Below are positions 1 through 13,829 of a stretch of DNA of 64,000 bases, in pieces (positions within the stretch are counted from its first letter, which is position 1; each line of letters begins with the position of its first letter). The translations under genes were made by a program, and so were the position numbers. Under the pieces are notes generated by a model, which had not been told where the DNA came from, did no database searches, and worked only from the letters and a program-made list of their open reading frames with translations. The DNA is taken from positions 3,352 through 67,351 of the forward strand of contig JAZKYO010000108.1 in the NCBI GenBank assembly GCA_045612185.1. Direction: 5' to 3'. Source of the stretch: Eubacteriales bacterium (GTDB taxonomy: Bacteria > Bacillota > Clostridia > Oscillospirales > CAG-272).

Positions 1-917
1 AGCGCTACTACAAGGAAGTACATCCAAGACATCGCGGTACTTACAACCTGACCGTTAATCTGTCCGTACTGTGCCGAAATAAACGACATTACCTGGTTAT
101 CTACCGTAAAGGCGTCAATAATCGTATAAACCGCATTTACCAAAATCATCGGGCTTATCATAGGAAGCGTTATCTTCCAGAAAGTTTCCCAAGCAGTAGC
201 TCCGTCAATAGAGCAGGACTCATAGATTGCGGGCGAGATAGACTGAAGACCCGCAAGGAATATAAGCATCTGTACACCCGAACGGTTAACGATATTATAA
301 ATATCATTGATCATTGCGGCAACGTACTCAACGAGTTCGGTACCGACTTTCATGTTTGCAAACAGAGCTTCGATATCCATTGCGGATACGATTTCTGCCG
401 CAGCACTTGTTCCCGAACCGTCATCAATACCCTCTGCAGAATCCATGTAGTTACCGAGAATGTTCTGCGCCTCGATACCCTCCATAATACCTGTGGAAAG
501 AATAACGGGGATAAAGAATATTGCACGGAACACACCTCGTCCTGCCATGTTCTGGTTAAGCAACACAGCCATGAACAGCGAGAAGATAATAATTGCGGGA
601 ATGTCGAAGGCAAGATCTTGAAGACCGGAAATCAAGGTCTGAACAAAGCTTGCGTTGACAAACAGCGCTTCGTGATAGTTAGCAAAGCCAACCCAAGTCA
701 GAGAGAATCCTCCGCCCTGAAGGTTATTGATCTGGTTAAAGCTGAGATAAATTGAATCCCAGATTACGGGCAGGTAAATCAGAACAAGTCCGATTATAAA
801 AGGCATTACAAAGACCCAACCCGCACGCGCCTTTCTTCTGTCAAGAGAGGCTATCTTTTTCTTTTTCTTCTTTACCGGAACGTTTGGAGTTTCGGTAATG
901 TTTTCCTGATTTGTCAT
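1..917 (-). CDS. ABC transporter permease (carbohydrate type, MalF/LplB-like); its 3' end lies beyond the window start
   Basis: Absent from the ORF track because it runs off the edge. My translation from the ATG at 917-915 gives MTNQENITETPNVPVKKKKKKIASLDRRKARAGWVFVMPFIIGLVLIYLPVIWDSIYLSF..., followed by several hydrophobic spans. A GAGAGG-like RBS lies upstream. The gene starts 17 nt after the stop of 935..4558. Confidence 0.8.
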   Translation of the reverse strand, partial: MTNQENITETPNVPVKKKKKKIASLDRRKARAGWVFVMPFIIGLVLIYLPVIWDSIYLSFNQINNLQGGGFSLTWVGFANYHEALFVNASFVQTLISGLQDLAFDIPAIIIFSLFMAVLLNQNMAGRGVFRAIFFIPVILSTGIMEGIEAQNILGNYMDSAEGIDDGSGTSAAAEIVSAMDIEALFANMKVGTELVEYVAAMINDIYNIVNRSGVQMLIFLAGLQSISPAIYESCSIDGATAWETFWKITLPMISPMILVNAVYTIIDAFTVDNQVMSFISAQYGQINGQVVSTAMSWMYFLVVA

Positions 918-934
918 TTTAGTACCTCTCTTTC

Positions 935-3900
935 TCAGATTTTATCGTGGTCGATAGATACGAATCCGTATCTATCGATCTCGTATGTTTCGCCTTCATA
1001 CTCAACCTGAATAGCGAAATAGTTGTAGTTAAGGATAAACGTTCTGTAATCCTCACCGGGCTCACCGTAGGTTACAGCCACGATTGTTCCGTCATCAACA
1101 AGATATCTGCTGTTGATACCTGTTGTTTCTTCAACGGTTTCCTCTTCCTCTTCCTCAACAACCACTATACCGTCTGTGATAGCAAGGACGTTGTTATAAA
1201 CAGCCTCCGCAGCCACAACGAGTGCGTCTATTTGAGCACAAAGTGCCTTGGAAGGAGCAACGTTCAACTGGCAATCTGCGATAAACTGCGCAGAGTATGT
1301 GCCGTCAGCAATGAAATATGCGATAGACTCGTTGATTATACGGTCCTTATCATACACGGTTTCCTTAGCCTTGTTAATTGCATTATAGGAAGAAGCTACA
1401 GAATTCACAAATGCCGCATTGATACGCTCTCTTGTAGACTTAGCGGAACTTTCAAGAACTGTAACGTCATCGTCAGCGCCGGGATTTGCGATATTAGCCT
1501 CAATAGACTTAAGGCTTTCAACAAGAGCGGTGATAGTAGGAACAGCACCTTCGAGTCTGGAAAGCGCGGTTTCAGCACTGGTAATTGCGGAACCTGCTGT
1601 AGTAAGAGCAGTTGTTCTGGATTCAAGAAGCTCACGGCGAAGAGTTGCCGCAGCAAGCTCAGCCGCCTTCTTCTCTGCCTCTATGCGTGCTATCTCTTCA
1701 GCCTCAGCGTCAGCGACAAGCTCATCCTCATCGGGAATTCTCTGACCTACAAGCATCACGTGGTTAGTGATAAGCTTATCCTGAAGGTCATGAGTAACGT
1801 CGTTAAGTCTATGATATACGTCAACAAGCTGACCTGCCTCAAACTCGCCGTTTTCATTGTAGCTACCTGCCCAGATATCATATCTTACAGAGTAGTACTG
1901 GCTGAGGAACACGTCCTCTTTAAGAACAGTAGCGTTGTCGTACGAAAGCACGAAGTAGATGGATGCGCCGTTTTCTATTGCCTTAAGAATACCGTACTGG
2001 ATATTTCCTTCCATGTTGATGGGGCTTCCGGTATACTGAACGTATCCGTGAAGAACCATGCCCGTGAAAGGAATGGTATTACTTGCGGAGAGGTAACGGC
2101 TGGAATCGATGGGCATATCAAGAATGTAGTCAACGTACTGCCACGTATAGGCATTACCGCCGTTGGTCATTACGTTTCCGTAGGTATCGGAAAGATCCTT
2201 GAACGTCTGGATTGTAAACTCCTTAGAGTCCTCACGATTGTAGGGTTCGTCCTCATCAAAGTCGGAGTTAAGGTCTGTACCTATTGTTGCGACTGAGATA
2301 TTAAGATCTGTGCCCGAACCGTCGGCACTGTACTCAAGGTATTTATCAGCAAGCTTATTATAGAATCTGCTGAAGTAAGCAGGCGAAAGTGCAAGACCGC
2401 CGTCCTGAACCTGAGTCTGGTAGGTGGCGCTATAAGATGACTTTCCTATATAACGGTCGTCAATTGTCTTAACGGCGTGCTTCTTAAGAGAAAGTCCGTC
2501 AAACGCACCGATGTTGTTTACGTAAGCAAAGTCAAAGTCGGGGAAAATACCAAGGTTGTTTCCGTCTGTGGAAGAAACCTTATTGATGTTGTTAGCAAAT
2601 TCAAGAAGCTCCTTAAAGCCGTTCTTTCCGCCAACAGCCTTTTCCCACTTAAGTCCGTAAGGAACCGTGGAATACATTCCTCCGTTCGCATAACCTGTGA
2701 GCTTAAGGTTGATATTTGTAATATCAACACCTGCCTGCGAAAGATCCTTGTAGATCTGCTGGATATCCTCAAAGGTTGTAAGAGGAGTCATTACGTTTAC
2801 GGGAACAGAAAGTACTTTCTCGATAGTCTCTACTGTACCGAAGGTTTCAAGATACAGAGGAATCTGACTCTCAAACTTATCGGCAGCGATTCTCTCAAGA
2901 ACTGTGGTCTGGTTAGACGCGCTTTCGTTCTGTGTTCCTGTGGAATAGGGGCTGGTAAGGTAATCACGGTATGCGTAAGCCATACCTGTGTAATCAGCGG
3001 GATAGTAATCAGTAATTCCCTTTTCTGCCGCTACTGCGTCATCGGTAAGCATAATGTAACGCACCTTATAGTTTCCAAGATACTTTCTATCCGAAACAAC
3101 TGTCCAGGTAGAGTTACTTCCTACCGAGATAGAATCCGCGATATTGTACGTATCGGAAGGTCTGGGGTTAACCGAAAGCTGAACCGAGTGATACTCGCCC
3201 TTTGTTCCCAAGTGTGTAGACTTGATTTCGGCAAGAGCGTCACCCTCTTCGATAATTGCGAAGAAGCCGCTTGTTGTGGGAGTTTCATTCTCCACGATAG
3301 AGTACGTACCTGTTGCGCTCTTCTCGTAGACGTATGTATTATCCTTAACAACGCCGAAAATAGGCATTTTGAAAACTTCCTGGTACTTACTTGTTATAGT
3401 ATGATACGCGAAGTCATCACCGTAGATTTTACCGCCAACGGTAGTCATACCGGAATTGGCGAGGTCCTCAAATCTAAAGATCGCACCCGATCCGTCGGGA
3501 ATGAATGTATAACCCTGATTGGGACGTGCGGTACTGTACTGACCTGCTCCCATAAAGGGAAGGATTGAAATGTAAGAAAGCTGGTAGATAGACTCATCGA
3601 AACGGATACCGTTTGCGGGAAGAGTTACCGTAACTCCCATATCGTCAAGAATGTACTCAAGAGCCATCTTGAACACAGCGGGGTTCTGGTCTTCGCTTTC
3701 ATACTCTGTCTCGGTATGGTCCATATCGAGTTCCTCGTAGGTATACGCGGGACAGTGGGTTTTAATAAGTTCCTCAAGCATCTGAAGCTCTGCGGGAGCG
3801 ATATTGACGTCGATCATGTATACCGCGCCGAGCGTTGCCGTAATCGGAACCTCATTGTAAAGGTCGGCAAGAGCTCTGTCAGACGTCATCTTTGAGGGAT

Positions 3901-4558
3901 CTCTGAGCGTAAACAGAGACATGAACTTATTATTAAGAGTGAACTTCCAGTTTCTGTCACCGCTTGCCTCAAGTCCTGCTGCAAGAGGTTCGTAAATCTG
4001 AGTTCTGAAGCGCTCCTCAGTAATAAGTCTGGGAACGAGGTACTTTGTTTCCTCACGACCGATGGTATACTCAACACGCATACCGTTTTTAATGCTCTTA
4101 ACCTTAATCTGGTTATTCTTAGCGGCATCGGTATAGCTTGTGAATACGTTTGTACCTGTAAGCTCGTTTCCTGTATATCCTACGATAATCTGGGAAAGAA
4201 GCTCTGCCTTTACGGAAGCGGCAGCGGTACTGAGTCCAACGTCATAGGGGTTAGTCAGGAGAAGTTCTCCCGTTTTGGTATTTTTAACAGCTACCTCACC
4301 GGTAAACTCGTTAATCCAAAGCTGATAGTCGCCTTTTTCAAAGCGCATCGTCATTGTAGCGAGCTTTTCCTCAGCTGTGTAGTACACCTGAGTAAGGTAG
4401 TCTATTTTGGAAAGATCGATCTCTTCAACAGTTGTATCGGTTGTAGCGGTATCCGCTGTTTCCTCAGCGGACGTCTGCAACACGAACAGACCGGACAATG
4501 AACCGAGCAGCATGCAAACAGTCAAGAGCGTCGATATTATTCTTTTTGTAAATTTCAT
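935..4558 (-). CDS. Large secreted protein (1207 aa) of unknown function; possibly glycoside-hydrolase-like or DUF5696-like, with a C-terminal Ala/Glu-rich helical insertion
   Basis: N-terminal signal peptide MKFTKRIISTLLTVCMLLGSLSGLFVLQTSA|EE, with a GGAG RBS upstream. The body carries blocks such as GYTFIPDGSGAIFRFEDL, IPLYLETFGTVE and FPDFDFAYV. The tail is helical (AEAEEIARIEAEKKAAELAAATLRRELL...) and ends with a VVVEEEEEETVEE run. The family assignment is from memory only. Confidence 0.75.
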   Translation of the reverse strand: MKFTKRIISTLLTVCMLLGSLSGLFVLQTSAEETADTATTDTTVEEIDLSKIDYLTQVYYTAEEKLATMTMRFEKGDYQLWINEFTGEVAVKNTKTGELLLTNPYDVGLSTAAASVKAELLSQIIVGYTGNELTGTNVFTSYTDAAKNNQIKVKSIKNGMRVEYTIGREETKYLVPRLITEERFRTQIYEPLAAGLEASGDRNWKFTLNNKFMSLFTLRDPSKMTSDRALADLYNEVPITATLGAVYMIDVNIAPAELQMLEELIKTHCPAYTYEELDMDHTETEYESEDQNPAVFKMALEYILDDMGVTVTLPANGIRFDESIYQLSYISILPFMGAGQYSTARPNQGYTFIPDGSGAIFRFEDLANSGMTTVGGKIYGDDFAYHTITSKYQEVFKMPIFGVVKDNTYVYEKSATGTYSIVENETPTTSGFFAIIEEGDALAEIKSTHLGTKGEYHSVQLSVNPRPSDTYNIADSISVGSNSTWTVVSDRKYLGNYKVRYIMLTDDAVAAEKGITDYYPADYTGMAYAYRDYLTSPYSTGTQNESASNQTTVLERIAADKFESQIPLYLETFGTVETIEKVLSVPVNVMTPLTTFEDIQQIYKDLSQAGVDITNINLKLTGYANGGMYSTVPYGLKWEKAVGGKNGFKELLEFANNINKVSSTDGNNLGIFPDFDFAYVNNIGAFDGLSLKKHAVKTIDDRYIGKSSYSATYQTQVQDGGLALSPAYFSRFYNKLADKYLEYSADGSGTDLNISVATIGTDLNSDFDEDEPYNREDSKEFTIQTFKDLSDTYGNVMTNGGNAYTWQYVDYILDMPIDSSRYLSASNTIPFTGMVLHGYVQYTGSPINMEGNIQYGILKAIENGASIYFVLSYDNATVLKEDVFLSQYYSVRYDIWAGSYNENGEFEAGQLVDVYHRLNDVTHDLQDKLITNHVMLVGQRIPDEDELVADAEAEEIARIEAEKKAAELAAATLRRELLESRTTALTTAGSAITSAETALSRLEGAVPTITALVESLKSIEANIANPGADDDVTVLESSAKSTRERINAAFVNSVASSYNAINKAKETVYDKDRIINESIAYFIADGTYSAQFIADCQLNVAPSKALCAQIDALVVAAEAVYNNVLAITDGIVVVEEEEEETVEETTGINSRYLVDDGTIVAVTYGEPGEDYRTFILNYNYFAIQVEYEGETYEIDRYGFVSIDHDKI

Positions 4559-4583
4559 TCTATCAATCTCCTTTTCTGTTATT

Positions 4584-6767
4584 TTACAGTCGGTATCCGA
4601 TTTCGATAAAGATATTGGAAATAAATCCGACGATCTTACCGAGAAGTGTTGTAAACAAGAGTGCGATGAACATAATGAATACCATTCCGACGATAGAGCC
4701 GATTACGGTAATTATGTTCTTACCAAGCGAATAGTCGTGTGTAACCTGAACACCGAACAGAATAAGGAATCCTGCCCAGATGAACGCCAACGAGATGAAG
4801 AGGTTTACGATATCCATTTCGCTACCCGTTACCATATTGGAAACGATAGTCATAGGAATTATGAACAAAGGAAGGGGGATAAGCGCGTAAGATGTTGCCA
4901 CAAACACGTCCTTAAAGCTTCCTTCACCTTCAAACAGTGTGGTAAGACACCAGTTTGCGATTACGAACAGCATTACGGGCATTACAACACCGATAAGCTG
5001 AACGAAAATTGTGGAATACTGACCCTGAGGATTGAAAAGGTAACCCTGACCGATTGCCTGATAGTAGAAAGCAACAACGGTAACCGCGATATAAACAAGT
5101 GCGGCACGGACAGATCCTCTCTTTTCATGCTTCAAATCCCAGAATCCGTCAAAGGGATGGGTCATAAGATGGAAGCCGAAGAGAAGCTCTTTACCGAAGG
5201 TAATCTTTTCACCCGACGTAGCAGCTCTGATATTGATCTTGGAAATCTTCTTAGACAACCATCCGAAGAGAACGCAAATTGCGATAATCGCGATGGGTAT
5301 AAGCACGAAAATATTTTCAATCGTCTGCTTACGTATTTCGGCATAAGCAATTGAGTAGTTGTCGGTATCGTAAGCGGCTTTGTAGTGCTCGATAGCAGCC
5401 TCGTACTGACCGCTTCTGTAAAGAGCCTGACCTATACCGATATACGCGGCGTCAAAGTTAGAGTTTCTCATAAGAATCTCTGTCCAGTTATCTATAGCCT
5501 TATCGTATTCACGGTTAATCTGGTCTGTAACAGCCTGGTAAAGGATATCACCGTACTCTGTTCTCTCGTATACTGTAATACTCTTACTTGTACCAGAGTC
5601 AAGAACGAGAAGCTTTTCGCCCTGATACGCAAGAGCCTTAATGGTACTTACGTTACCAAGCTGAAGATTACCTCTGTCACCGAAAGCGAAGAGAAGATTA
5701 CCTTCGTTATCGTACGTAAATACTTTACTACGCTTTGTATCGGATATAGACCAAGTTCCCGATTCACCTACCGCAACGTCACCTACCGTGGAAACGCCCT
5801 TGATAGCGTTGGGGTCGTGGCTTGCGTTGGTAAATGCTATCTCACCTACGGGAGGATAGAAACCGTTACGTCTCATGATTTCGCTACCTGCGTTGTTAAG
5901 GAGCTTAACCTGAGAGTTTGATGCGGATCCGGTTTTACTTCTGATTGCAGACTCAACCTTAGCGGTGTCAATTTTATCAGAGGAAGCGTAAACGAAGCCG
6001 TCATCGGTTACCGTAATGTTACTGAAGGTTACGGGAACGAAGATAGTAGAAAGCTTTTTCTGCTCGTCAGTCTGGAATCGTCTCCAGATAATCTGCCAAA
6101 GCGAAATACTTACTTCCTGAGCACCGATAAATCCGGTAAATTCACCATCCTCGGTAAGAACGATAATACCCTGCGTTGTCTGAGAAGATACAACGTAAAT
6201 TCTGTTGTACTGGTCAACGGCAACAGCTACGGGGTAATAAACCGATCCTTCCTCGAAAAGTTCTGATTCGGGTGCATCAAGAACATAAAGGAAATTACCG
6301 CTGCGGTCAAATACTACGATACGGTATTTCTGAGTATCGCACACGTAGATTCTTCCCTCTTCAACAATATCGCCGTAACCGTTATACTTATTATCGGTTA
6401 CGTAAACGCCTCTGGGAGAAGCAAAGCTATCGGGTGCTCCAATTTCATTGGTAAATCCTGAGATTGTGAACTTATGCTTATAGTATCTGTCCAACACGAT
6501 TACCGAGTTAGAACCGGCATCAGCGATGTACACGTTAAGGTCATCATCGACAACCATATCGTAGGGATCGGAGATAGTAGCCCCTTCGGGAAGTCCCATA
6601 TAGGAAGAATTATATGTACCTACGGGAATATACGCATCGGGAGAATACAAGGGGTCTCCATTAATGGAGTAGGTATAAGTCTGGAACGAGTTGAATGCTC
6701 CAACCGGTACGGAAAGCAGCATTATGAGGGCAAATGCCAAAACTAAAATTTTTACTGATTTTTTCAT
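4584..6767 (-). CDS. Membrane protein with an extracytoplasmic NHL-repeat beta-propeller, a TPR segment and a C-terminal Yip1-type multi-pass domain
   Basis: Signal peptide MKKSVKILVLAFALIMLLSVPVGA. NHL-like repeats include IYVADAGSNSVIVLD, IYVCDTQKYRIVVFDRSGNF and IYVVSS. A TPR-like segment reads AAYIGIGQALYRSGQYEAAIEHYKAAYD. A TM helix follows, then HPFDGFWDLKHEKRGS plus about 5 TM helices typical of bacterial Yip1 domains. An AGGAGG RBS is present. Confidence 0.8.
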   Translation of the reverse strand: MKKSVKILVLAFALIMLLSVPVGAFNSFQTYTYSINGDPLYSPDAYIPVGTYNSSYMGLPEGATISDPYDMVVDDDLNVYIADAGSNSVIVLDRYYKHKFTISGFTNEIGAPDSFASPRGVYVTDNKYNGYGDIVEEGRIYVCDTQKYRIVVFDRSGNFLYVLDAPESELFEEGSVYYPVAVAVDQYNRIYVVSSQTTQGIIVLTEDGEFTGFIGAQEVSISLWQIIWRRFQTDEQKKLSTIFVPVTFSNITVTDDGFVYASSDKIDTAKVESAIRSKTGSASNSQVKLLNNAGSEIMRRNGFYPPVGEIAFTNASHDPNAIKGVSTVGDVAVGESGTWSISDTKRSKVFTYDNEGNLLFAFGDRGNLQLGNVSTIKALAYQGEKLLVLDSGTSKSITVYERTEYGDILYQAVTDQINREYDKAIDNWTEILMRNSNFDAAYIGIGQALYRSGQYEAAIEHYKAAYDTDNYSIAYAEIRKQTIENIFVLIPIAIIAICVLFGWLSKKISKINIRAATSGEKITFGKELLFGFHLMTHPFDGFWDLKHEKRGSVRAALVYIAVTVVAFYYQAIGQGYLFNPQGQYSTIFVQLIGVVMPVMLFVIANWCLTTLFEGEGSFKDVFVATSYALIPLPLFIIPMTIVSNMVTGSEMDIVNLFISLAFIWAGFLILFGVQVTHDYSLGKNIITVIGSIVGMVFIMFIALLFTTLLGKIVGFISNIFIEIGYRL

Positions 6768-6779
6768 TTGCTACCTCCT

Positions 6780-7652
6780 TTAGTCCTTCATACCGCTGGA
6801 ACCCATTGTCTCAATAATGTTCGACTGAGAAATGACGAATACTATAATAGGTACCATCATCATAATAACCGTCGAAGCCGCGCCCGCGCCCGCACGCTTA
6901 ATACCACCTGCCATAACCTGCTGGATAGCATAGTTGAAGGATTTAAGCTGCTCGGACTGGATATATACAGACGCTCCTGCGTTCCAAAGGTCCTTAAACG
7001 AGTAAATAATAAGTGTAAGCCAAGCGGGCTTAACCATGGGCATTGCTATTGTCCAATAGGTTCTAAGCTCGCTCGCACCGTCAAGACGTGCGCTTTCAAG
7101 CACCGCGTCGGTAACGTTGGTCTCCATGAACTGCTTCATAAGATAAAGACCAAGGGACGTTGCCCATGCGGGAATGATTCTTGACCAATATGTATCGATC
7201 CAACCAAGCTTACTCATGATAAGGAAGCTGGTGATAGCGGTAACTGTTGCGTGGAACATAAGAGAAGTTCTTACAAGTTTGAACATTCCCTTTCCGCCCG
7301 GGAACTTGATCTTAGCCATTGCGTATGCCGCAAGAGACGAGAAGAAAAGGTTACCGGTTGTACCGACGATAGATACGAATACTGTGTTGAATATGTATCT
7401 GGAGAAAGGCACCAGCGACGTATTCATAAGTGTAAACAGATCTGTAAAGTTTTTAAGTGTGGGGTTTACAACGAAGAATCTCGGGGGGAACATCCAAAGC
7501 TCGTCAAGAGGCTTCAACGACTGGCTTATAACGTAAACCATGGGAAGGAACATGAAGAGTCCGAGGATACCGAGTACAAAGGTAATACCCGCGTCACCGC
7601 CGCGAGAACGGTTAAGTACGACTTTATGATTTCTTGTTCTTAATTTTGCCAT
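6780..7652 (-). CDS. Carbohydrate ABC transporter permease (MalG-type)
   Basis: 290 aa and multi-TM. Its length and topology, with a conserved cytoplasmic loop region, resemble binding-protein-dependent transport inner-membrane components. It lies 1 nt downstream of the preceding permease. Confidence 0.9.
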   Translation of the reverse strand: MAKLRTRNHKVVLNRSRGGDAGITFVLGILGLFMFLPMVYVISQSLKPLDELWMFPPRFFVVNPTLKNFTDLFTLMNTSLVPFSRYIFNTVFVSIVGTTGNLFFSSLAAYAMAKIKFPGGKGMFKLVRTSLMFHATVTAITSFLIMSKLGWIDTYWSRIIPAWATSLGLYLMKQFMETNVTDAVLESARLDGASELRTYWTIAMPMVKPAWLTLIIYSFKDLWNAGASVYIQSEQLKSFNYAIQQVMAGGIKRAGAGAASTVIMMMVPIIVFVISQSNIIETMGSSGMKD

Positions 7653-7653
7653 A

Positions 7654-8601
7654 TTACGTACCTACCTTTGCAATAATATTCTTTACAAGCATATTGGAGC
7701 CTACCATTACAAGGAACAGGATAACCGCAATAGCCGAAGAATAACCTATCTCGAAACGCTGTCCGCCGTAGTCGTCAAGGTGGTGCATTATCGTATGCGC
7801 CGCATAGTCAACCGACGGGAATCCACAAAGTGCTGTAACGACACCGCCGAAGCCGAACGCGCCGGTAATAGCCATGATAGCACCGAACATAAGCTGAGGT
7901 CCCATATTGGGAAGTGTGATATACCAAAGCTCCTGCCATCTGTTCTTAACGCCGTCAACCGCGCCTGCCTCAAACTGAGACTTATCTACGCCCTGAAGAC
8001 CTGCGATGAACGCAAGGAAGGACGTACCAAGCGAGGTCCAAAGTGCAACCACGATACACAAAGGCATTACGTAGGATGCGTTCTGAAAGAACTGAATAGG
8101 CTCTGTTACAAGTCCCATTTCAAGAAGTTTGGAGTTTACCCAACCGTAAGCGTCACCCGAGAAGAGGGTCTGCCAGATAAGGTAAACCTGACCCGAAATG
8201 GAGGGAGCGTAGAATACAAGAGTAACCACAGCTCTGATTTTGGGAGGAAGCTCGTTGATAAACCAAGCAACCAGGAAAGACATAAGGTAGGATACAGGAC
8301 CTACTATGATAGCGAAAATAAATGTATTCTTAACCGCTGTGAGGAATATGTCGTCATCAAGGAAGAGACGCACATAGTTGTCAACGAACACAAAGTTCGG
8401 CCACTCAAGCAAGTTAAAGTCCGTAAAGCTGAACACGATTGACAGTACAACCGGCGCGATGGTGAACAAGGTGAAAATGAGCATAAAGGGAGCGACCATT
8501 ACATATGCTACCCAGTTGCGCTTCATTTCCTTCCAAGTCCACTGCGCCATTGTCATGTCTTTACGCGAAACAGCTTTCTTTTCTGCTGTTTTCTTTGACA
8601 T
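7654..8601 (-). CDS. Sugar ABC transporter permease (MalF-type)
   Basis: 315 aa. The N-terminus KEMKRNWVAYVMVAPFMLIFTLFTIAPVVLSIVFSFTDF is typical of CUT1-family permeases, and the protein has 6 TM segments. Confidence 0.9.
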   Translation of the reverse strand: MSKKTAEKKAVSRKDMTMAQWTWKEMKRNWVAYVMVAPFMLIFTLFTIAPVVLSIVFSFTDFNLLEWPNFVFVDNYVRLFLDDDIFLTAVKNTFIFAIIVGPVSYLMSFLVAWFINELPPKIRAVVTLVFYAPSISGQVYLIWQTLFSGDAYGWVNSKLLEMGLVTEPIQFFQNASYVMPLCIVVALWTSLGTSFLAFIAGLQGVDKSQFEAGAVDGVKNRWQELWYITLPNMGPQLMFGAIMAITGAFGFGGVVTALCGFPSVDYAAHTIMHHLDDYGGQRFEIGYSSAIAVILFLVMVGSNMLVKNIIAKVGT

Positions 8602-8651
8602 TACTTTTCTCCTTAATTAATAGAATAGATTTTTATTTCTGATTAAGCAAA

Positions 8652-11600
8652 TTAGTTCTGGTAAGAGACAAGTGCGTTATACGCGTCTTTCATAAGCTCG
8701 ATTGCTTTTTCAAGACCTGTCTTATCAGCAGAATTAAGGGTGGATCCTGCAAGCTCGCCCTCAAGCTGAGCGATTGCGTCTACAAGAATTTCCATCTGTT
8801 GTTCTTCACTAATCTTAACGTCGACGTCAGCAGCTCTTCTGATATTATTTATCATATCAGCATACTTGCCCGTCACCGCGGAGCTGAGAGTATAATCAAG
8901 ATCTTTCATCTTGATTTCTTCTACGCCCTTAACAGTTTCATATACACCCTTATTGATAGTAAGTTCTCCTTCAGAAAGAAGTGTATATACCTGAGCCAAT
9001 CTCTTTTCAGAAAGCTTCTGACCTACGTAATCAAGAGTTTCAAGATCGAACTCACTGCGTTTTCTGGTAATTTCTTTATTGATTGTATTGATGTACGACA
9101 GCAACTCCTCAACGGGGTCCGCGTCGTTGTTGATCGCAGCCATGTAAGCGAACTTAGCATAACGCTCAATGATGTACGAACCGGGATAGTTGGGAATCGA
9201 TGCAAGGTTGTTGAACTGAAGCTGGATCTGCTTGATCTCATCAGCTGTCCAAGGCAAGCTCTCAAGCGCGTTAAGGTTTGCGGTGGGATGCTTTGCGGAA
9301 GGACCGAGAATAGATACCATTTCGTTAGAGTATTTCTCCTGGCAGTCCGCACCGGAGTGCCATCTCATAAAGTCCCAAGCGCCCTCAACGTTTTCACAGC
9401 CCGTAATCATAACGATTGCGGATACGCCGGAAACAGAGCAGTTGTTGATATTACCGAACTCGTCCTCGATACCGGGCATAGGATAGAAGCCCCACAAGCC
9501 TTCGATTTCGGTTGCAAATACCTTCAATTTATTATATGTATCTGTATAACCGGCAAATCCGATAGGCATTTCACCTGTTCTGAAACGGTTAGCAAAGTCG
9601 TATGAAAGCGGGAAAGAGTACATAGTAAACATGTTGGTCATCTTTTCAAACGCCTCAAGCGAAGTATTTGCGTCAAGGTTAATTCTCATACCGTTATCTG
9701 CGAAGAGGTCTCCGCCCATCTGGTATATGAACATTCTGTACTCAACGTGCATACCGATCTGCATGTTGTTAGCCTGAAGAACGGGAATTGCGGAATAGAT
9801 ATCGTCCCAAGTCTTGGGAATATCAAGGTCAAGCTCCGCAAGGATGTCCTTTCTTACGAACATCATATTAAAGGACTGTGTTTCGGGAAGTCCGTAGTAG
9901 TGCATTGTACCAACCGAGTCCTCAATACCAAGAACGATCATCGCCGCCTCGTTGAACTCTCTTGTCTCGGGATTTGTAACGAGATCTTCAAAGTCAGCGC
10001 AATTCTCTATGGGCATAAGCGCTCCACGGATAGCATAGTTAATTACGTCAGCCTGACCAAGACCGATATAAACATCGGGGCCCGTCTGAGAAAGTATGGA
10101 AGGAAGAAGTGTACCGCCCGCAACGAGCTTAAGGTTTACAGCCGTTCCATACTGAGGAGTAAAGTCGTTATTTACAAGGTTTCTGATAACCTGTGTCTGG
10201 TCACGACCGTATGCAAGCCAAACTTCAACGATTTCAGAATCTTCATCGTCGTACTCTTCGGTTGCACCCATTCTATCGTAATTTCTAATGAAGGACTGGA
10301 AGAAGCTTCCCATTTCATGACCGAAGGACTGGAAGAAGTTAGCCTCAGCCTTAGGAAGTTTGTTTCCTTTACCCTGAACAAGAAGATAGTCTATCTGAAG
10401 GGGTTGCGTTTTTGCGTCACTAATCCAAGTACCGAGCGAACCGATATAGGATTTAAGCTGTGTAAGGTTCTTAGCGATTTCGTTCTCGGGGTCGCCGCCC
10501 ATTCTCTCAAGAAGCCAAGCAACCTGATCAAGGGTAGCTACCATCGAGCCCTTAATTCCCGCCATAGCCTGAAGCTTTGCGGAAATATCATAAATAAGGA
10601 TCGACTGCTCCATAAGGTCCTTAACCACATTGGGAAGAACTCGCTTAAAGCCGTAGTCACGGTAATCGTCGGGCTCAGCGCCTGTAAGCTTAAGAATAGA
10701 AAGATAGTCAGAGTTTATAGACTCAAGCGCGCCTTCTATCTGGCTTACAAGGTCACCCATAGAACCAAGTGTAACGGTAAACTCAACGGTATATACAACG
10801 CCTTCCTTGAAATAGAAATCAAAGTCGGTATTGCCGTCGGAAAGTATCTTAGTCTGCCACTCGGAAGAATAGTCGAATCTGAGTTTTGCAGCCTCTGCAA
10901 ACGGAGTACCGTTGTAGTATCCCTCAAGGTTGCCAAATTTAGCCTTATACTCTTCCTCAGTGTAGTTTGTATAGATAGCCAAAGATCTTGAAGCATACAT
11001 ACCGTCAAGAACCGATTGGCTGAATCTTGCTACAATATTATATACGCCACTGTTATCCACAGAAAAGTTCCAAGTAAGTGCCTGACCGGCGGTCTGCCAC
11101 TTGTCACCGCCCACACCGCCGATGGTGTTAAGCATAGTGTTCTTAGTGGTGATGGGGCTTGTTATAGCGCTTCTTGTATCCTCAATGGGATAAATAGTCT
11201 GCGACGTTGTGGACGTAAGATACTCACCCTCTACCTTAACGCTGCTTGTCCCCGCGGGAGCAGACGCATAATACGCACTTGCCTCTGCATAAGGTACGTA
11301 ACTTGCGTGAGGAACGAGCTTAATGCTCTTAATAGCCATAGGCTCGCTGACACCGGTGAGAGAAATTACGGTATTATCGGATTTTTCGAATACGAACTCG
11401 AAAGACTCGGAATAATAACCGTCGGTGTCGTGAATCTCATATGTCATCCATTTGGGAGACTGAACTATGGGAGAACGAATTTCATTGTGGTCGATATCAG
11501 AGCTAAAGAATCTCACCTTAAGCTCCTCGCAAAGATAGTTGTATCTCTCCGCAGTCCAATACTCAGGCATTTCATATTTAATGAGAGTTGCGTTGTCAAC

Positions 11601-12293
11601 CGTTTCGCTGGTAGCAACAATACCAAGCTCTCTCGCCTTATTCAAGTGGTATTCAGCGGTTTCGCCCTTGCCAAGTTTATACACCGCATTTACGTAATCA
11701 TTGGTATAAATCTTTTGAAGGGTAAGATATCTCGCCTCGAGGAAAGGAATTGCCGAATCAATACGGAAGATACGCTCAACAGCAGTTGATTTACCTACCG
11801 AATTTCCCGCAGCATCCACCTGAGTGGGATAATACTCAATTACCACGCTGTATCTTGCGGTTTCGGGGATCGACACATTCCACGAAACAGTACCTGTGGC
11901 GGGGGTGTAGAGAGCCTCTACTCCGTCAAAGGTTCCGACCGCGTACTCCGCGTCGCTCTGCTCGGCATTGACGTCCTTAACAGCGTCAATAACGATCTCC
12001 TCGGTTGCCGCGTCAACCGTCCAGACTCTTTCTACGATTTCTTTTCCGTCCGCGTCAACCGCACCGGTATACTTAGAATACTTTCTGAAGTACTCGTCGT
12101 AAGAAATCGAATTAAGAATCTCTCGTACATCGTCGATGGTCGCATCTGTAACCGATGTGTTCTGATTACCTGCCGGCTTCGGTGAAATCAGTATCGTGTC
12201 ATCGGCAGCATACGCCGCGATTCCGGCACTTGAAAGCACACAGAGCAGAGCAAGTACCAAAGAAAGGAATCTTTGGAATTTCTTCTTGTTCAT
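8652..12293 (-). CDS. Giant extracellular solute-binding protein (1213 aa): N-terminal beta-sandwich/CBM-like modules, a helical linker, a family-1 SBP domain and a helical tail
   Basis: The track ORF 8652..12533 is trimmed to the ATG at 12293, which sits 7 nt after AGGAGG (12301-12306). The trimmed protein starts MNKKKFQRFLSLVLALLCVLSSAGIAAYA|ADD, a signal peptide. The C-terminal half is SBP-like (IVEVWLAYGRDQTQVIRNLVNNDFTPQYGTAVNLKLV..., PVLQANNMQIG, LWGFYPMPG). The N-terminal ~700 aa hold two similar modules (TVSWNVSIPETARYSVVIEYYP and ALTWNFSVDNSGVYNIVARFSQ). Confidence 0.85.
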   Translation of the reverse strand: MNKKKFQRFLSLVLALLCVLSSAGIAAYAADDTILISPKPAGNQNTSVTDATIDDVREILNSISYDEYFRKYSKYTGAVDADGKEIVERVWTVDAATEEIVIDAVKDVNAEQSDAEYAVGTFDGVEALYTPATGTVSWNVSIPETARYSVVIEYYPTQVDAAGNSVGKSTAVERIFRIDSAIPFLEARYLTLQKIYTNDYVNAVYKLGKGETAEYHLNKARELGIVATSETVDNATLIKYEMPEYWTAERYNYLCEELKVRFFSSDIDHNEIRSPIVQSPKWMTYEIHDTDGYYSESFEFVFEKSDNTVISLTGVSEPMAIKSIKLVPHASYVPYAEASAYYASAPAGTSSVKVEGEYLTSTTSQTIYPIEDTRSAITSPITTKNTMLNTIGGVGGDKWQTAGQALTWNFSVDNSGVYNIVARFSQSVLDGMYASRSLAIYTNYTEEEYKAKFGNLEGYYNGTPFAEAAKLRFDYSSEWQTKILSDGNTDFDFYFKEGVVYTVEFTVTLGSMGDLVSQIEGALESINSDYLSILKLTGAEPDDYRDYGFKRVLPNVVKDLMEQSILIYDISAKLQAMAGIKGSMVATLDQVAWLLERMGGDPENEIAKNLTQLKSYIGSLGTWISDAKTQPLQIDYLLVQGKGNKLPKAEANFFQSFGHEMGSFFQSFIRNYDRMGATEEYDDEDSEIVEVWLAYGRDQTQVIRNLVNNDFTPQYGTAVNLKLVAGGTLLPSILSQTGPDVYIGLGQADVINYAIRGALMPIENCADFEDLVTNPETREFNEAAMIVLGIEDSVGTMHYYGLPETQSFNMMFVRKDILAELDLDIPKTWDDIYSAIPVLQANNMQIGMHVEYRMFIYQMGGDLFADNGMRINLDANTSLEAFEKMTNMFTMYSFPLSYDFANRFRTGEMPIGFAGYTDTYNKLKVFATEIEGLWGFYPMPGIEDEFGNINNCSVSGVSAIVMITGCENVEGAWDFMRWHSGADCQEKYSNEMVSILGPSAKHPTANLNALESLPWTADEIKQIQLQFNNLASIPNYPGSYIIERYAKFAYMAAINNDADPVEELLSYINTINKEITRKRSEFDLETLDYVGQKLSEKRLAQVYTLLSEGELTINKGVYETVKGVEEIKMKDLDYTLSSAVTGKYADMINNIRRAADVDVKISEEQQMEILVDAIAQLEGELAGSTLNSADKTGLEKAIELMKDAYNALVSYQN

Positions 12294-12515
12294 AAGTTTT
12301 CCTCCTGAAAAATTGCTGAGCATAATGGTCGCCACGAAGCCCGAAGGGGTTAACCGCGGTATAACACGAACGTCATAAGACGAGGTGGGGTGTTCTGCAC
12401 GGAATCCAATAGGCTTATCCGAAGACAAAGCCCTCGTATCCCCCGAAAAAAGACTATTGATTTTCACCAAAAGCCGTTCAAACGAGAAACGGGCGCAAAA
12501 ATGCCATATTTCAAT
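12294..12515 (-). promoter_or_regulatory. Long (~220 nt) structured 5' leader of the SBP operon
   Basis: It lies between the predicted TSS (about 12515) and the ATG at 12293. A UUCG-capped hairpin GGCUUUGUC-UUCG-GAUAAGCC spans 12412-12432. A long-range helix pairs ACGAGG with CCUCGU (12432-12437 with 12380-12385). A second UUCG hairpin is UAUGACG-UUCG-UGUUAUA. A 5'-proximal hairpin (12473-12494) is followed by UUUU. Confidence 0.45.
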
Positions 12516-12521
12516 GACATT

Positions 12522-12550
12522 ATAATACCACACAACAACCGAAATGTCAA
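12522..12550 (-). promoter_or_regulatory. Sigma-A-type promoter of the SBP operon
   Basis: On the minus strand: TTGACA (12550-12545), a 17-nt spacer, then TGgTATTAT, an extended -10 (12527-12522). Confidence 0.6.
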
Positions 12551-13280
12551 GATTTTGAAGAGATGAAAATTTTGTGTGTTTATATTATGAAGGAGTTTTG
12601 CACAAAGACAAAACGCATAAATAACGCCCATCAAGTCCAAACGCAAAAAAAGCAACACCGTATTATGGTAAATACAATTTACCTCTGCTTCGGTGATTTT
12701 GTCAGATACACCTCTTGTTTTGTGCAATTTGACAATGCCATTTTTTCGACAAAACACTCCCACTTCCGCAAGGTAAACCACATTTACCTGAATTGAACCC
12801 AATTTTTCGCATCTCAGAACTTTCGGTTCATGTTACGCCAAATAATTTTTGTGCAATTTCAACAATTTCCCGCTTCTTTTTTCTACACTAAAATTTCACA
12901 CCGTTTTTTGAATATTATTTTCAGCGACAGTTTGTTTTTCTACTTTCCAAGCCAAATAATAACATAAAATTACAATTATACCTTTAATTTACTTTTACAC
13001 CTTTTATTTCTCGGAATAAGCATTTGCGCTTGTGAAACACAAACAAAATGAATTTTACCACCAATCAGAACGCGAACAAACGACATTCGTTTGACAACGG
13101 AGTGAACAAGAGAACACTTATTTATGGGAGTGTTATACAATACGGTAAGTTGCCAATTCCCTATTGTGAGCGTTTGTGTTACCGCGAACCTACTCGCACT
13201 TACACATGCATATTGTTGTCAAAGATTAACGCACCGCAAATGTCACCTTGCGATGCGCGCAACATCCGTTTTGGGGTGAT

Positions 13281-13319
13281 AAAAAATACGCCGACCGATG
13301 TAAAACTCGGTCGGCGTAT
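13281..13319 (-). terminator. Rho-independent terminator downstream of nifU
   Basis: A 13-bp stem pairs ATACGCCGACCGA with TCGGTCGGCGTAT (13286-13298 with 13307-13319). A U-run follows on the minus strand (plus-strand A-run 13281-13286). Confidence 0.8.
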
Positions 13320-13394
13320 AGCCCATTCTGTTGAAATTGGCCCGCAAAACAACAAACTTCTCACGTCAAGCAATCGCTCACCCACACATGGAAA

Positions 13395-13829
13395 TTAGTG
13401 TCCGCCTTCTCCCACTTCACAGTCATGGCAGTGTGCAGGAGCAGGTATTTCCTTGTCAATTCCATTCTTTTTGTAATAATCCGCAACAGCAGCTTTTATA
13501 GCCTCCTCGGCAAGAACTGAGCAGTGAACCTTTACAGGCGGAAGCCCTTCAAGAGCTTCTACAACCGCAGCATTGGTAAGTTCGAGCGCCTCGTCGATAC
13601 TCTTCCCTTTTACAAGCTCGGTAGCCATGGAAGAAGTTGCGATAGCGGCACCGCAACCGAAGGTCTTGAATTTAACATCAACGATAATGTCATTTTCAAC
13701 CTTAATGAACATCTGCATTATATCTCCGCATTTTGCGTTGCCCACTGTTCCCACGCCGTCCGCGTTCTCAATTTCTCCCACGTTTCTGGGATTTTTGAAA
13801 TGATCCATTACTTTTTCTGTATATACCAT
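13395..13829 (-). CDS. nifU: Fe-S cluster assembly scaffold protein NifU/IscU
   Basis: MDHFKNPRNVGEIENADGVGTVGNAKCGDIM...FKTFGCGAAIATSS...VHCSVLAEEAI carries the three conserved Cys motifs of U-type scaffolds. Confidence 0.95.
   Translation of the reverse strand: MVYTEKVMDHFKNPRNVGEIENADGVGTVGNAKCGDIMQMFIKVENDIIVDVKFKTFGCGAAIATSSMATELVKGKSIDEALELTNAAVVEALEGLPPVKVHCSVLAEEAIKAAVADYYKKNGIDKEIPAPAHCHDCEVGEGGH

Follow-up and report, generated by a model that had tools for sequence, protein, structure and literature searches.

A propeller–Yip1 membrane protein in a conserved carbohydrate-uptake cassette of Firmicutes

The gene at positions 4584–6767, on the minus strand, of a 64,000-nucleotide (nt) stretch of DNA from a Eubacteriales bacterium (contig JAZKYO010000108.1; the whole stretch is referred to below as the window) belongs as a fixed member to a carbohydrate-uptake cassette that is conserved among Firmicutes. 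Its product is a 727-amino-acid (aa) membrane protein in which an NHL beta-propeller, TPR-like repeats, a single transmembrane (TM) helix and a Yip1 domain are joined in one chain. The cassette has the order giant solute-binding protein (SBP), permA, permB, propeller–Yip1 gene (NHL-TPR-TM + Yip1), DUF5696 gene, permC and permD, where the perm genes encode permeases. We conclude that the propeller–Yip1 protein is probably an accessory part of a widespread carbohydrate-uptake machine. Its domains were already known, as were the family by name and one orthologue inside a published operon. Set against the literature that we searched, what is new is the strict partnership of the Yip1/propeller protein with DUF5696 and permC/D, its occurrence as either split or fused genes, the many paralogous loci into which it has multiplied, and the GH129-like fold that modeling indicates for DUF5696 throughout the cassette family.

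Conservation of the uptake cassette

Relatives of the propeller–Yip1 protein are numerous. A large protein collection holds >4,500 full-length homologues, and those that carry a name are all called "YIP1 family protein" and all come from metagenome-assembled genomes of Clostridia. For the Yip1 domain alone, 1,158 cluster representatives were found at E ≤ 1e-10. When genomes were restricted to one per species, >577 loci were found to encode a relative. Synteny among close relatives was read from the best 80 of these loci, which belong to gut and rumen Clostridia and encode proteins with 52–88% identity to ours. All 80 present the same order of giant SBP, permA, permB, propeller–Yip1 gene, DUF5696 and permC, up to the limits of their contigs.

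A survey of the phylum approached the same linkage from the side of the neighbor. DUF5696 is present in 21 of the 301 genomes sampled, representing 13 of 222 genera. The 20 positive genomes other than our own hold 40 strong DUF5696 genes. Immediately upstream of 37 of these, and in the same orientation, lies a Yip1-domain gene; the remaining 3 are located where a contig starts. Among the 97 Yip1 matches in those DUF5696-positive genomes, 69 are of the cassette type: 62 matches fall in open reading frames (ORFs) of 677–838 aa, which are fusions, and 7 are Yip1 genes of 209–222 aa that adjoin DUF5696.

More distant loci show which part of the cassette is constant. We compared 34 of them, 14 examined by blastp, from Caldicellulosiruptor-type, Paenibacillus-type and other genomes (25–59% identity) and 20 paralogous loci from two further genomes. 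Every one of the 14 keeps a core of NHL/Yip1, DUF5696, permC and permD; 11 keep the full set with giant SBP, permA and permB, and 3 have the core only. In the paralogous group, NHL-TPR-Yip1, DUF5696, permC and permD are together at all 20 loci, unless a contig end cuts the series. A conventional SBP of 420–470 aa stands alongside in most of these 20, and the giant SBP–permA–permB module accompanies 7 or 8 of them. Overall, this module is missing from ∼15 of the 34 distant loci. The core partnership is thus that of the propeller–Yip1 protein with DUF5696 and permC/D, and the upstream SBP–permA–permB module is a frequent but optional addition.

These comparisons bear directly on the original prediction, which had proposed that the protein is a scaffold or receptor subunit for the transporter and that Yip1-domain genes should be associated with ABC (ATP-binding cassette) permeases. 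The association is very strong across the 80 close loci, the 34 distant loci and the 301-genome survey. The scaffold or receptor role, which is inferred from gene context, is partly supported: the conserved context speaks for it, but the tightest partner is DUF5696 with permC/D and not the upstream permeases and SBP to which the proposal had pointed.

Fission, rearrangement and duplication have all acted on the cassette. In six loci, of Paenibacillus type and others, the NHL-TPR-TM part (486–510 aa) and the Yip1 part (204–213 aa) are separate, overlapping genes. The split point falls in the cytoplasmic linker, and the split Yip1 gene begins with a motif of the HPFDGFWDLKHEKRGS type. Because they occur as separate genes in these six loci, the propeller part and the Yip1 part can be regarded as partners by the gene-fusion argument. 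Gene order is altered at two loci. At L093 it reads NHL-Yip1, DUF5696, permC, permD, giant SBP, permA, permB, with the gene set kept; at L107 it reads DUF5696, permC, permD, NHL-Yip1, SBP, with no core member lost. Two genomes of 2.4–3.0 Mb (G088 and G054; loci L099–L118) hold 17 and 10 Yip1-cassette paralogues, whose flanking genes differ from locus to locus in a manner that resembles the polysaccharide-utilization-locus expansion of Bacteroidota. The paralogues diverge to ∼30% identity.

One orthologue lies inside an operon that has been studied experimentally. With the homologue of locus L090 as the query, searches returned Caldicellulosiruptor proteins (from C. owensensis, C. bescii and C. 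danielii) and also split "NHL repeat-containing proteins" of Paenibacillus. The xylan degradation locus (XDL) of Anaerocellum (Caldicellulosiruptor) bescii has the structure xloEFG-X-GH129-axoFGE, in which X is Athe_0177; it is placed under the regulators XynR and AraR and is up on xylan and Avicel (Rodionov et al., PMC8579813). Transcribed together with xloEFG, GH129 and axoFGE, Athe_0177 is xylan-induced, with a log2 fold change of 4.37 on xylan versus cellobiose (PMC8579813). The supplementary tables of that paper name it an "NHL repeat-containing protein" and list neither a role nor a regulon for it.

The XynR operator ACTAGTAAACGCTTACGATA, taken from PMC12285236, occurs once in genome G202, at 212205, directly upstream of the gene for a 954-aa SBP_bac_1 protein. 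That gene is followed by two permeases, a 716-aa NHL-TPR-Yip1 protein, a 733-aa DUF5696 protein, two more permeases, a 601-aa SBP, GH43-CBM and GH10. Because of the operator match and the Pfam content, we equate this locus with xloEFG-X-GH129-axoFGE of A. bescii. The gene in the window is thus the counterpart of X. Athe_0177, which corresponds by position to Csac_2416, is an orthologue of ∼27–30% identity that has the NHL-TPR-TM-Yip1 layout in 716 aa and stands between permB and DUF5696. The two cassettes share a chassis and differ in cargo. In the A. bescii cassette, whose cargo is xylan, GH43 and GH10 xylanases come after a terminal small SBP (AxoE), whereas in that of the window permD is followed by a cytoplasmic GH123 and by no small SBP, GH10 or GH43. 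No function is assigned to X/Athe_0177 in PMC8579813 or in the other literature that we searched, where queries for DUF5696 by name and for Caldicellulosiruptor with NHL repeat also found nothing. The A. bescii transporter literature that we examined does not mention the locus, and our search for XloE and AxoE led to the mSystems paper alone.

Architecture of the protein and of its DUF5696 partner

Translation of both strands yields one uninterrupted minus-strand ORF that exactly fills 4584–6767, and the plus-strand frame over the same positions contains many stops. A strong Shine-Dalgarno sequence, AAGGAGG, lies 7 nt 5′ of the ATG and overlaps the stop of the preceding permease gene. The region had been predicted to encode an NHL-TPR-Yip1 fusion between permease genes and a giant secreted protein, and this reading is confirmed by the ORF, by Pfam, by matches to the Protein Data Bank (PDB) and by AlphaFold2 and Foldseek. 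The peptides quoted in its support (IYVADAGSNSVIVLD, IYVCDTQKYRIVVFDRSGNF and HPFDGFWDLKHEKRGS) are all present in the translation. The flanks are also as described, with two BPD_transp_1 permeases upstream and the 1207-aa DUF5696 protein downstream.

Both profile matches on which the prediction depended are significant. Membership in the Yip1 family PF04893 rests on sequence: Pfam aligns residues 533–702 with profile positions 2–171 of 173 (E = 3.1e-15; 56.9 bits vs. a cut-off of 28.6), and the domain scored 61.6 bits in a whole-genome scan. The NHL profile PF01436 reaches 26 bits against a cut-off of 20 in our protein, and 45.8 bits in orthologues. In sequence comparisons with the PDB, the propeller matches the NHL domains of Thin, Brat and TRIM71 (E from 1e-8 to 1e-5) and also the PknD sensor. 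Single Pfam TPR models over residues 418–474 fall marginally below their cut-offs (26.5 vs. 27.8 and 26.4 vs. 27), and consensus-TPR structures match residues 420–472 with E = 5e-11 in the PDB sequence comparison.

An AlphaFold2 model built from an input of 61 homologues has a mean predicted local distance difference test (pLDDT) of 78.8 and a predicted template-modeling score (pTM) of 0.64. It begins with a helix at residues 3–18 and a low-pLDDT stretch at the signal peptide, followed by a beta-propeller at ∼30–403 that contains an insertion of ∼110 aa (∼215–325), partly helical and of lower confidence. Five paired helices over 404–486 run into a long helix at 489–517. Short helices at 524–547 then precede five long helices that extend up to the C terminus. 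Foldseek searches of the PDB with this model list six-bladed NHL propellers, including those of TRIM71, Brat, Thin and PknD, at E values of 1e-14 to 1e-12 (E = 3.5e-14) and with TM-scores (template-modeling scores) on the target of 0.72–0.79. As modeled, therefore, the ectodomain matches the six-bladed propeller fold.

Hydropathy places the signal peptide at residues 1–24, a TM helix at 485–505 and five further TM segments between 554 and 710, in agreement with PF04893 and with the signal peptide, single TM helix and five-TM Yip1 domain that the original prediction had proposed. The propeller and TPR repeats are predicted to lie outside the cell, the linker of residues 511–553 inside and the C terminus outside. 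The outside placement of propeller and TPR repeats follows from the basic N terminus and signal peptide, from the basic stretch SKKISKINIR after the first TM helix (TM1) and from the split homologues, whose first products terminate in TPR, TM helix and a basic tail; a cytoplasmic propeller, which would have spoken against a receptor or scaffold, is not what these features predict. Five TM helices after an N-terminal segment that is predicted to be cytoplasmic are what would be expected of the Yip1 family.

Conservation is distributed unevenly along the chain. The cytoplasmic linker (511–553) is the most conserved segment, with 79% identity among close and 41% among deep homologues, and it contains the invariant alignment columns H537–S552. 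TM1 is the least conserved segment (43% among close and 14.5% among deep homologues). Two further invariant polar motifs, EGEGSFKD (613–620) and THDY (676–679), are predicted on the cytoplasmic face as well. In the propeller, the conserved residues are the structural Asp and Arg of the NHL motif.

In the closest partner of the protein, DUF5696, a signal or anchor helix and an acidic linker that is disordered stand ahead of a GH129/GH101-like body at ∼50–935. A long coiled coil and then a small C-terminal domain come after the body. An AlphaFold2 model of residues 1–950 (pLDDT 80.8, pTM 0.79) matched GH129 structures in Foldseek, namely the Zobellia 3,6-anhydro-D-galactosidase 5opq (E = 3e-20) and Bifidobacterium NagBb 5wzp (E = 5e-18), with TM-scores on the target of 0.61–0.67; GH101 followed at E = 1e-10, and GH31 and GH66 were weaker. 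On the evidence of this model, DUF5696 has a GH129/GH101-like glycosidase fold. Searches against PDB chains with a single sequence (phmmer) or a profile gave no match, and relaxed Pfam scans of the cassette DUF5696 proteins gave no GH129 or GH101 match at E ≤ 10, so that membership in GH129 is not supported at the sequence level. Residues D355 (in a PDGSG motif), D382, D766 and E862 are conserved across 29 DUF5696 proteins at ∼25% identity, a pattern that would fit an active glycosidase without proving one. In many lineages, both DUF5696 and the giant SBP carry N-terminal helices that resemble TM anchors and look uncleaved.

The genome also encodes a second DUF5696-like protein of 578 aa (L119, 5019–6755, contig C52), with no Yip1 gene nearby; it adjoins an AraC regulator and Gfo/Idh/MocA genes. 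This paralogue matches DUF5696 at E = 4e-33 and Glyco_hydro_101 at E = 1e-4, the latter under the cut-off, and provides a weak sequence bridge from DUF5696 to GH101/GH129. The C-terminal part of the window's DUF5696 protein (residues ∼940–1207; window positions 935–1750) comprises a long coiled coil rich in Ala and Glu, a poly-Glu run and a C-terminal domain of ∼60 aa, and is found only in the closest relatives. Alignments of other loci to the window's DUF5696 protein end near residue 942, and the DUF5696 proteins of distant loci have 730–990 aa.

Possible roles in glycan uptake

The original prediction regarded the bacterial function of Yip1 domains as unknown, a view that overlooks the one functional precedent that we found, in Bacillus. 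There, the YknYZ ABC exporter requires a fourth subunit of the Yip1 family, YknW, which modulates YknXYZ assembly and is reported to form a composite interface with other YknWXYZ components (PMC4887032). Yip1-domain genes also occur next to ABC transporters in bacteriocin clusters (PMC11580447).

By analogy with YknW, we favor the reading that the propeller–Yip1 protein is an accessory membrane organizer that couples the GH129-like ecto-enzyme to the permC/D importer, and we give it a probability of about 0.45. The protein would be a non-transporting subunit that organizes the importer machine. Its Yip1 bundle would form an intramembrane interface to the permC/D pair, to the N-terminal anchor helix of DUF5696, or to both, in the manner of YknW in the YknXYZ exporter. 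Propellers and TPR repeats are classic protein-binding modules. In this protein they would hold the DUF5696 ecto-enzyme, perhaps along with the binding protein, in place over the translocation pore, with oligosaccharides that have been trimmed at the surface being passed directly to the importer. The conserved cytoplasmic motif may add a contact at the inner face, either with permease loops or with a shared MsmK-type ATPase.

Four points weigh against an organizer of this kind. First, since DUF5696 and the giant SBP have N-terminal anchors of their own in many lineages, a tether is not strictly required. Second, no fusion of Yip1 to DUF5696 or to a permease was found among the best 150 Yip1 relatives, where the domain is always C-terminal. 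Third, the most conserved segment is cytoplasmic, and a purely extracellular scaffold offers no account of it. Finally, the YknW analogy is a loose one, the exporter being of another ABC class. We had also considered that the giant SBP and DUF5696, which have no lipoboxes, would need the propeller–Yip1 protein as a tether; that argument is weakened by the uncleaved-looking TM anchors in other lineages.

The organizer reading can be extended to a larger claim, which we regard as doubtful. NHL-TPR-TM + Yip1, DUF5696, permC/D, a binding protein and the MsmK ATPase might together constitute an undescribed class of ABC importer complex in monoderms, which would be for Gram-positive bacteria what the utilisome is for Bacteroidota. 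The Yip1 protein would then be an integral extra membrane subunit, the propeller would hold the glycosidase over the pore, and events at the surface would be transmitted to the ATPase through the conserved cytoplasmic motif of Yip1.

The contrast between the linker, which is the most conserved segment, and the adjacent TM1, which is the least conserved, keeps alive the idea of an additional cytoplasmic contact or signal, and with it a role in sensing or gating. We consider such a role unlikely. The protein would be a surface glycan receptor or sensor, whose propeller binds glycan and whose Yip1 domain relays occupancy through the cytoplasmic motif and gates the importer or the shared ATPase. 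Strong conservation of the cytoplasmic linker would suit this function, as would the resemblance of the propeller to the extracellular sensor domain of PknD, and divergence of the paralogues to the extent seen would be expected if their ligands differ. However, the protein lacks a signaling output domain, its conserved propeller residues are those structural Asp and Arg and mark no obvious ligand site, and the cassette already includes one or two binding proteins.

The strict adjacency to DUF5696 would also suit an assembly or maturation factor whose sole task is to insert, fold or stabilize DUF5696, permC/D, or both, and that is not a stoichiometric working part. The effect of YknW on YknXYZ assembly (PMC4887032) provides an example, and TPR modules are common in chaperone-like proteins. 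We nevertheless rate this as distinctly improbable. A weak argument against it comes from A. bescii, where the transcript of the gene is as abundant as that of GH129 and exceeds those of the permeases, which fits a structural subunit better than a factor acting catalytically in assembly.

A catalytic propeller, of the lactonase or lyase type represented by SMP-30/gluconolactonase and virginiamycin B lyase and with Yip1 as a mere anchor, seems very improbable. It is true that orthologues match the Pfam family SGL above its cut-off (32.8 bits), that Foldseek lists virginiamycin B lyase at a TM-score on the target of ∼0.6, and that relatives are named "sugar lactone lactonase YvrE" in some sources. 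Yet the structures that match best are NHL domains without enzymatic activity, nothing outside the repeat motif stands out as a conserved His/Asp/Glu metal site, and a mere anchor would need neither a conserved five-TM Yip1 domain nor a conserved cytoplasmic motif. Finally, that the gene is a passenger whose operon position is historical, with no functional link to uptake, is hardly credible: the linkage is kept from ∼88% down to ∼25% identity and survives order rearrangements (L093 and L107), fission and fusion, and 10–17 paralogous copies per genome.

Carbohydrate ABC importers of Firmicutes are modeled as a binding protein, two permeases and a shared ATPase. The propeller–Yip1 protein and the putative GH129-like ecto-protein appear as third and fourth components that are conserved as strictly as the permeases, and neither is given a role in the papers that we searched. 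They are found in hundreds of species, from gut, rumen and soil as well as thermophilic ones, with up to 17 copies per genome; in A. bescii, an organism used in biofuel work, they belong to the principal locus for xylan. Should both prove to be functional parts of the importer, current models of how Gram-positive fiber degraders capture glycans would need revision, and the engineering of sugar uptake would have to include the propeller–Yip1 and DUF5696 genes. The Yip1 fold would then have a second bacterial role, after that of YknW. The genetics and published expression data of A. bescii make the role directly testable.

The operon and comparable systems

The features of the operon are collected in Table 1. 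Its genes are separated by gaps of 12–25 nt and have strong Shine-Dalgarno sequences. Contigs from four bovine-gut metatranscriptomes cover 1–12516, with none over 12517–13400, and single contigs bridge the Yip1/DUF5696 and DUF5696/permC junctions; since metatranscriptome libraries can contain DNA, we treat this coverage as supportive only.

Table 1. Coordinates of the operon genes, of the parts of the propeller–Yip1 protein and of the promoter-like site, in window positions
Feature	Position	Strand	Evidence
Promoter-like site TTGACA-17-TG-TATTAT at the operon head	12522..12550	-	11/12 consensus matches
Giant binding protein, 1213 aa from ATG 12293; CBM-like N-terminal extension and divergent family-1 SBP core	8652..12293	-	
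permA, MalF/UgpA-like CUT1 permease, 315 aa	7654..8601	-	Pfam, NCBIfam
permB, MalG/UgpE-like CUT1 permease, 290 aa	6780..7652	-	Pfam, NCBIfam
Propeller–Yip1 gene (P0001), NHL propeller-TPR-TM-Yip1 membrane protein, 727 aa	4584..6767	-	ORF, Pfam, AlphaFold2, homologues
Sec-type signal peptide, residues 1–26 (MKKSVK, hydrophobic core, VGA|F)	6690..6767	-	Hydropathy peak 2.67; cleavage inferred
Six-bladed NHL beta-propeller, residues 27–403, predicted extracytoplasmic	5559..6689	-	Pfam, PDB sequence matches, Foldseek
∼2.5 probable TPR repeats, residues 404–484, running straight into the TM helix	5316..5558	-	Consensus-TPR structures, Pfam TPR_1/2/16, model helices
Single TM helix (out to in), residues 485–510	5238..5315	-	Hydropathy 2.93; conservation; split homologues
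Linker with HPFDGFWDLKHEKRGS motif, residues 511–553, predicted cytoplasmic	5109..5237	-	Conservation; split Yip1 genes
Five-TM Yip1 domain, residues 554–727	4587..5108	-	PF04893, hydropathy, model helices
DUF5696 protein, 1207 aa, obligate neighbor	935..4558	-	PF18952, E = 8e-122 (Pfam)
permC, CUT1-type permease, 325 aa, last ∼20 codons beyond the left edge of the window	1..917	-	Pfam BPD_transp_1

The giant binding protein has a signal peptide, a weak Pfam match to CBM_35 and weak matches to SBPs of the PDB over residues 691–982; its orthologues carry SBP_bac_1 at E = 5e-31. We take ATG 12293 as its start because the signal peptide begins there, and the resulting 1213 aa agree with an orthologue of 1212 aa. 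The alternative start at GTG 12533, which adds positions 12294–12533 and gives a 1293-aa ORF, is almost certainly over-extended. A leader of ∼220 nt lies between the promoter-like site (12550–12522) and this ATG, with a terminator-like hairpin inside it at 12492–12474.

To the left of the window, the contig (L098) continues on the same strand with the end of permC, permD (348 aa, BPD_transp_1) and then a gene for a GH123-family protein. This protein has 551 aa (L098, 504–2159, minus strand), matches GH123_cat at E = 4e-97 and is without a signal peptide. GH123 is a family of beta-N-acetylgalactosaminidases. The presence of this cytoplasmic enzyme after permD suggests that the cargo in the source organism is a glycan, or oligosaccharides, containing N-acetylgalactosamine. 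At L081, which encodes a relative with 83% identity, the GH123 gene is absent and convergent unknown genes are found in its place. The operon contains no ATPase gene, and the one MalK-type (OB_MalK) ATPase of the genome is encoded on another contig; the importer ATPase is supplied in trans.

It is useful to compare the propeller–Yip1 protein with the systems that share its parts. Like our protein, YknW is a bacterial membrane protein of the Yip1 family whose gene accompanies those of an ABC transporter. It is, however, a small stand-alone Yip1 protein that serves a MacB-type exporter with a membrane-fusion protein, whereas ours bears a 480-aa propeller–TPR module, predicted to be extracellular, and is encoded beside type I CUT1 importers and a glycosidase-like protein. 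The two belong to a common Pfam family. The eukaryotic Yip1/YIPF proteins, which reside in the Golgi and endoplasmic reticulum and interact with Rab, have in common with our protein PF04893 and five TM helices after a cytoplasmic N-terminal segment. In our protein, by comparison, the N-terminal cytoplasmic domain is replaced by a short conserved motif and a TM helix that links to the ectodomain; to our knowledge, bacteria have no Rab GTPases and no vesicle traffic.

The NHL propellers of TRIM71, Brat and Thin and of Mycobacterium tuberculosis PknD have the fold and the repeat motif of ours, and that of PknD is likewise extracellular and borne on a membrane protein, as is predicted here. Our propeller differs in its identity of 13–19% to these domains, in the ∼110-aa helical insertion between blades and in being joined to Yip1 instead of a kinase or TRIM module. 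At the level of the whole system, the SusC/D utilisome of Bacteroidota offers a functional analogy only: there too, a transporter, one or more binding proteins and a surface glycosidase are co-encoded, in many paralogous loci with varied carbohydrate-active enzymes. The cassette described here is built from unrelated protein families, belongs to monoderm bacteria and employs ABC importers.

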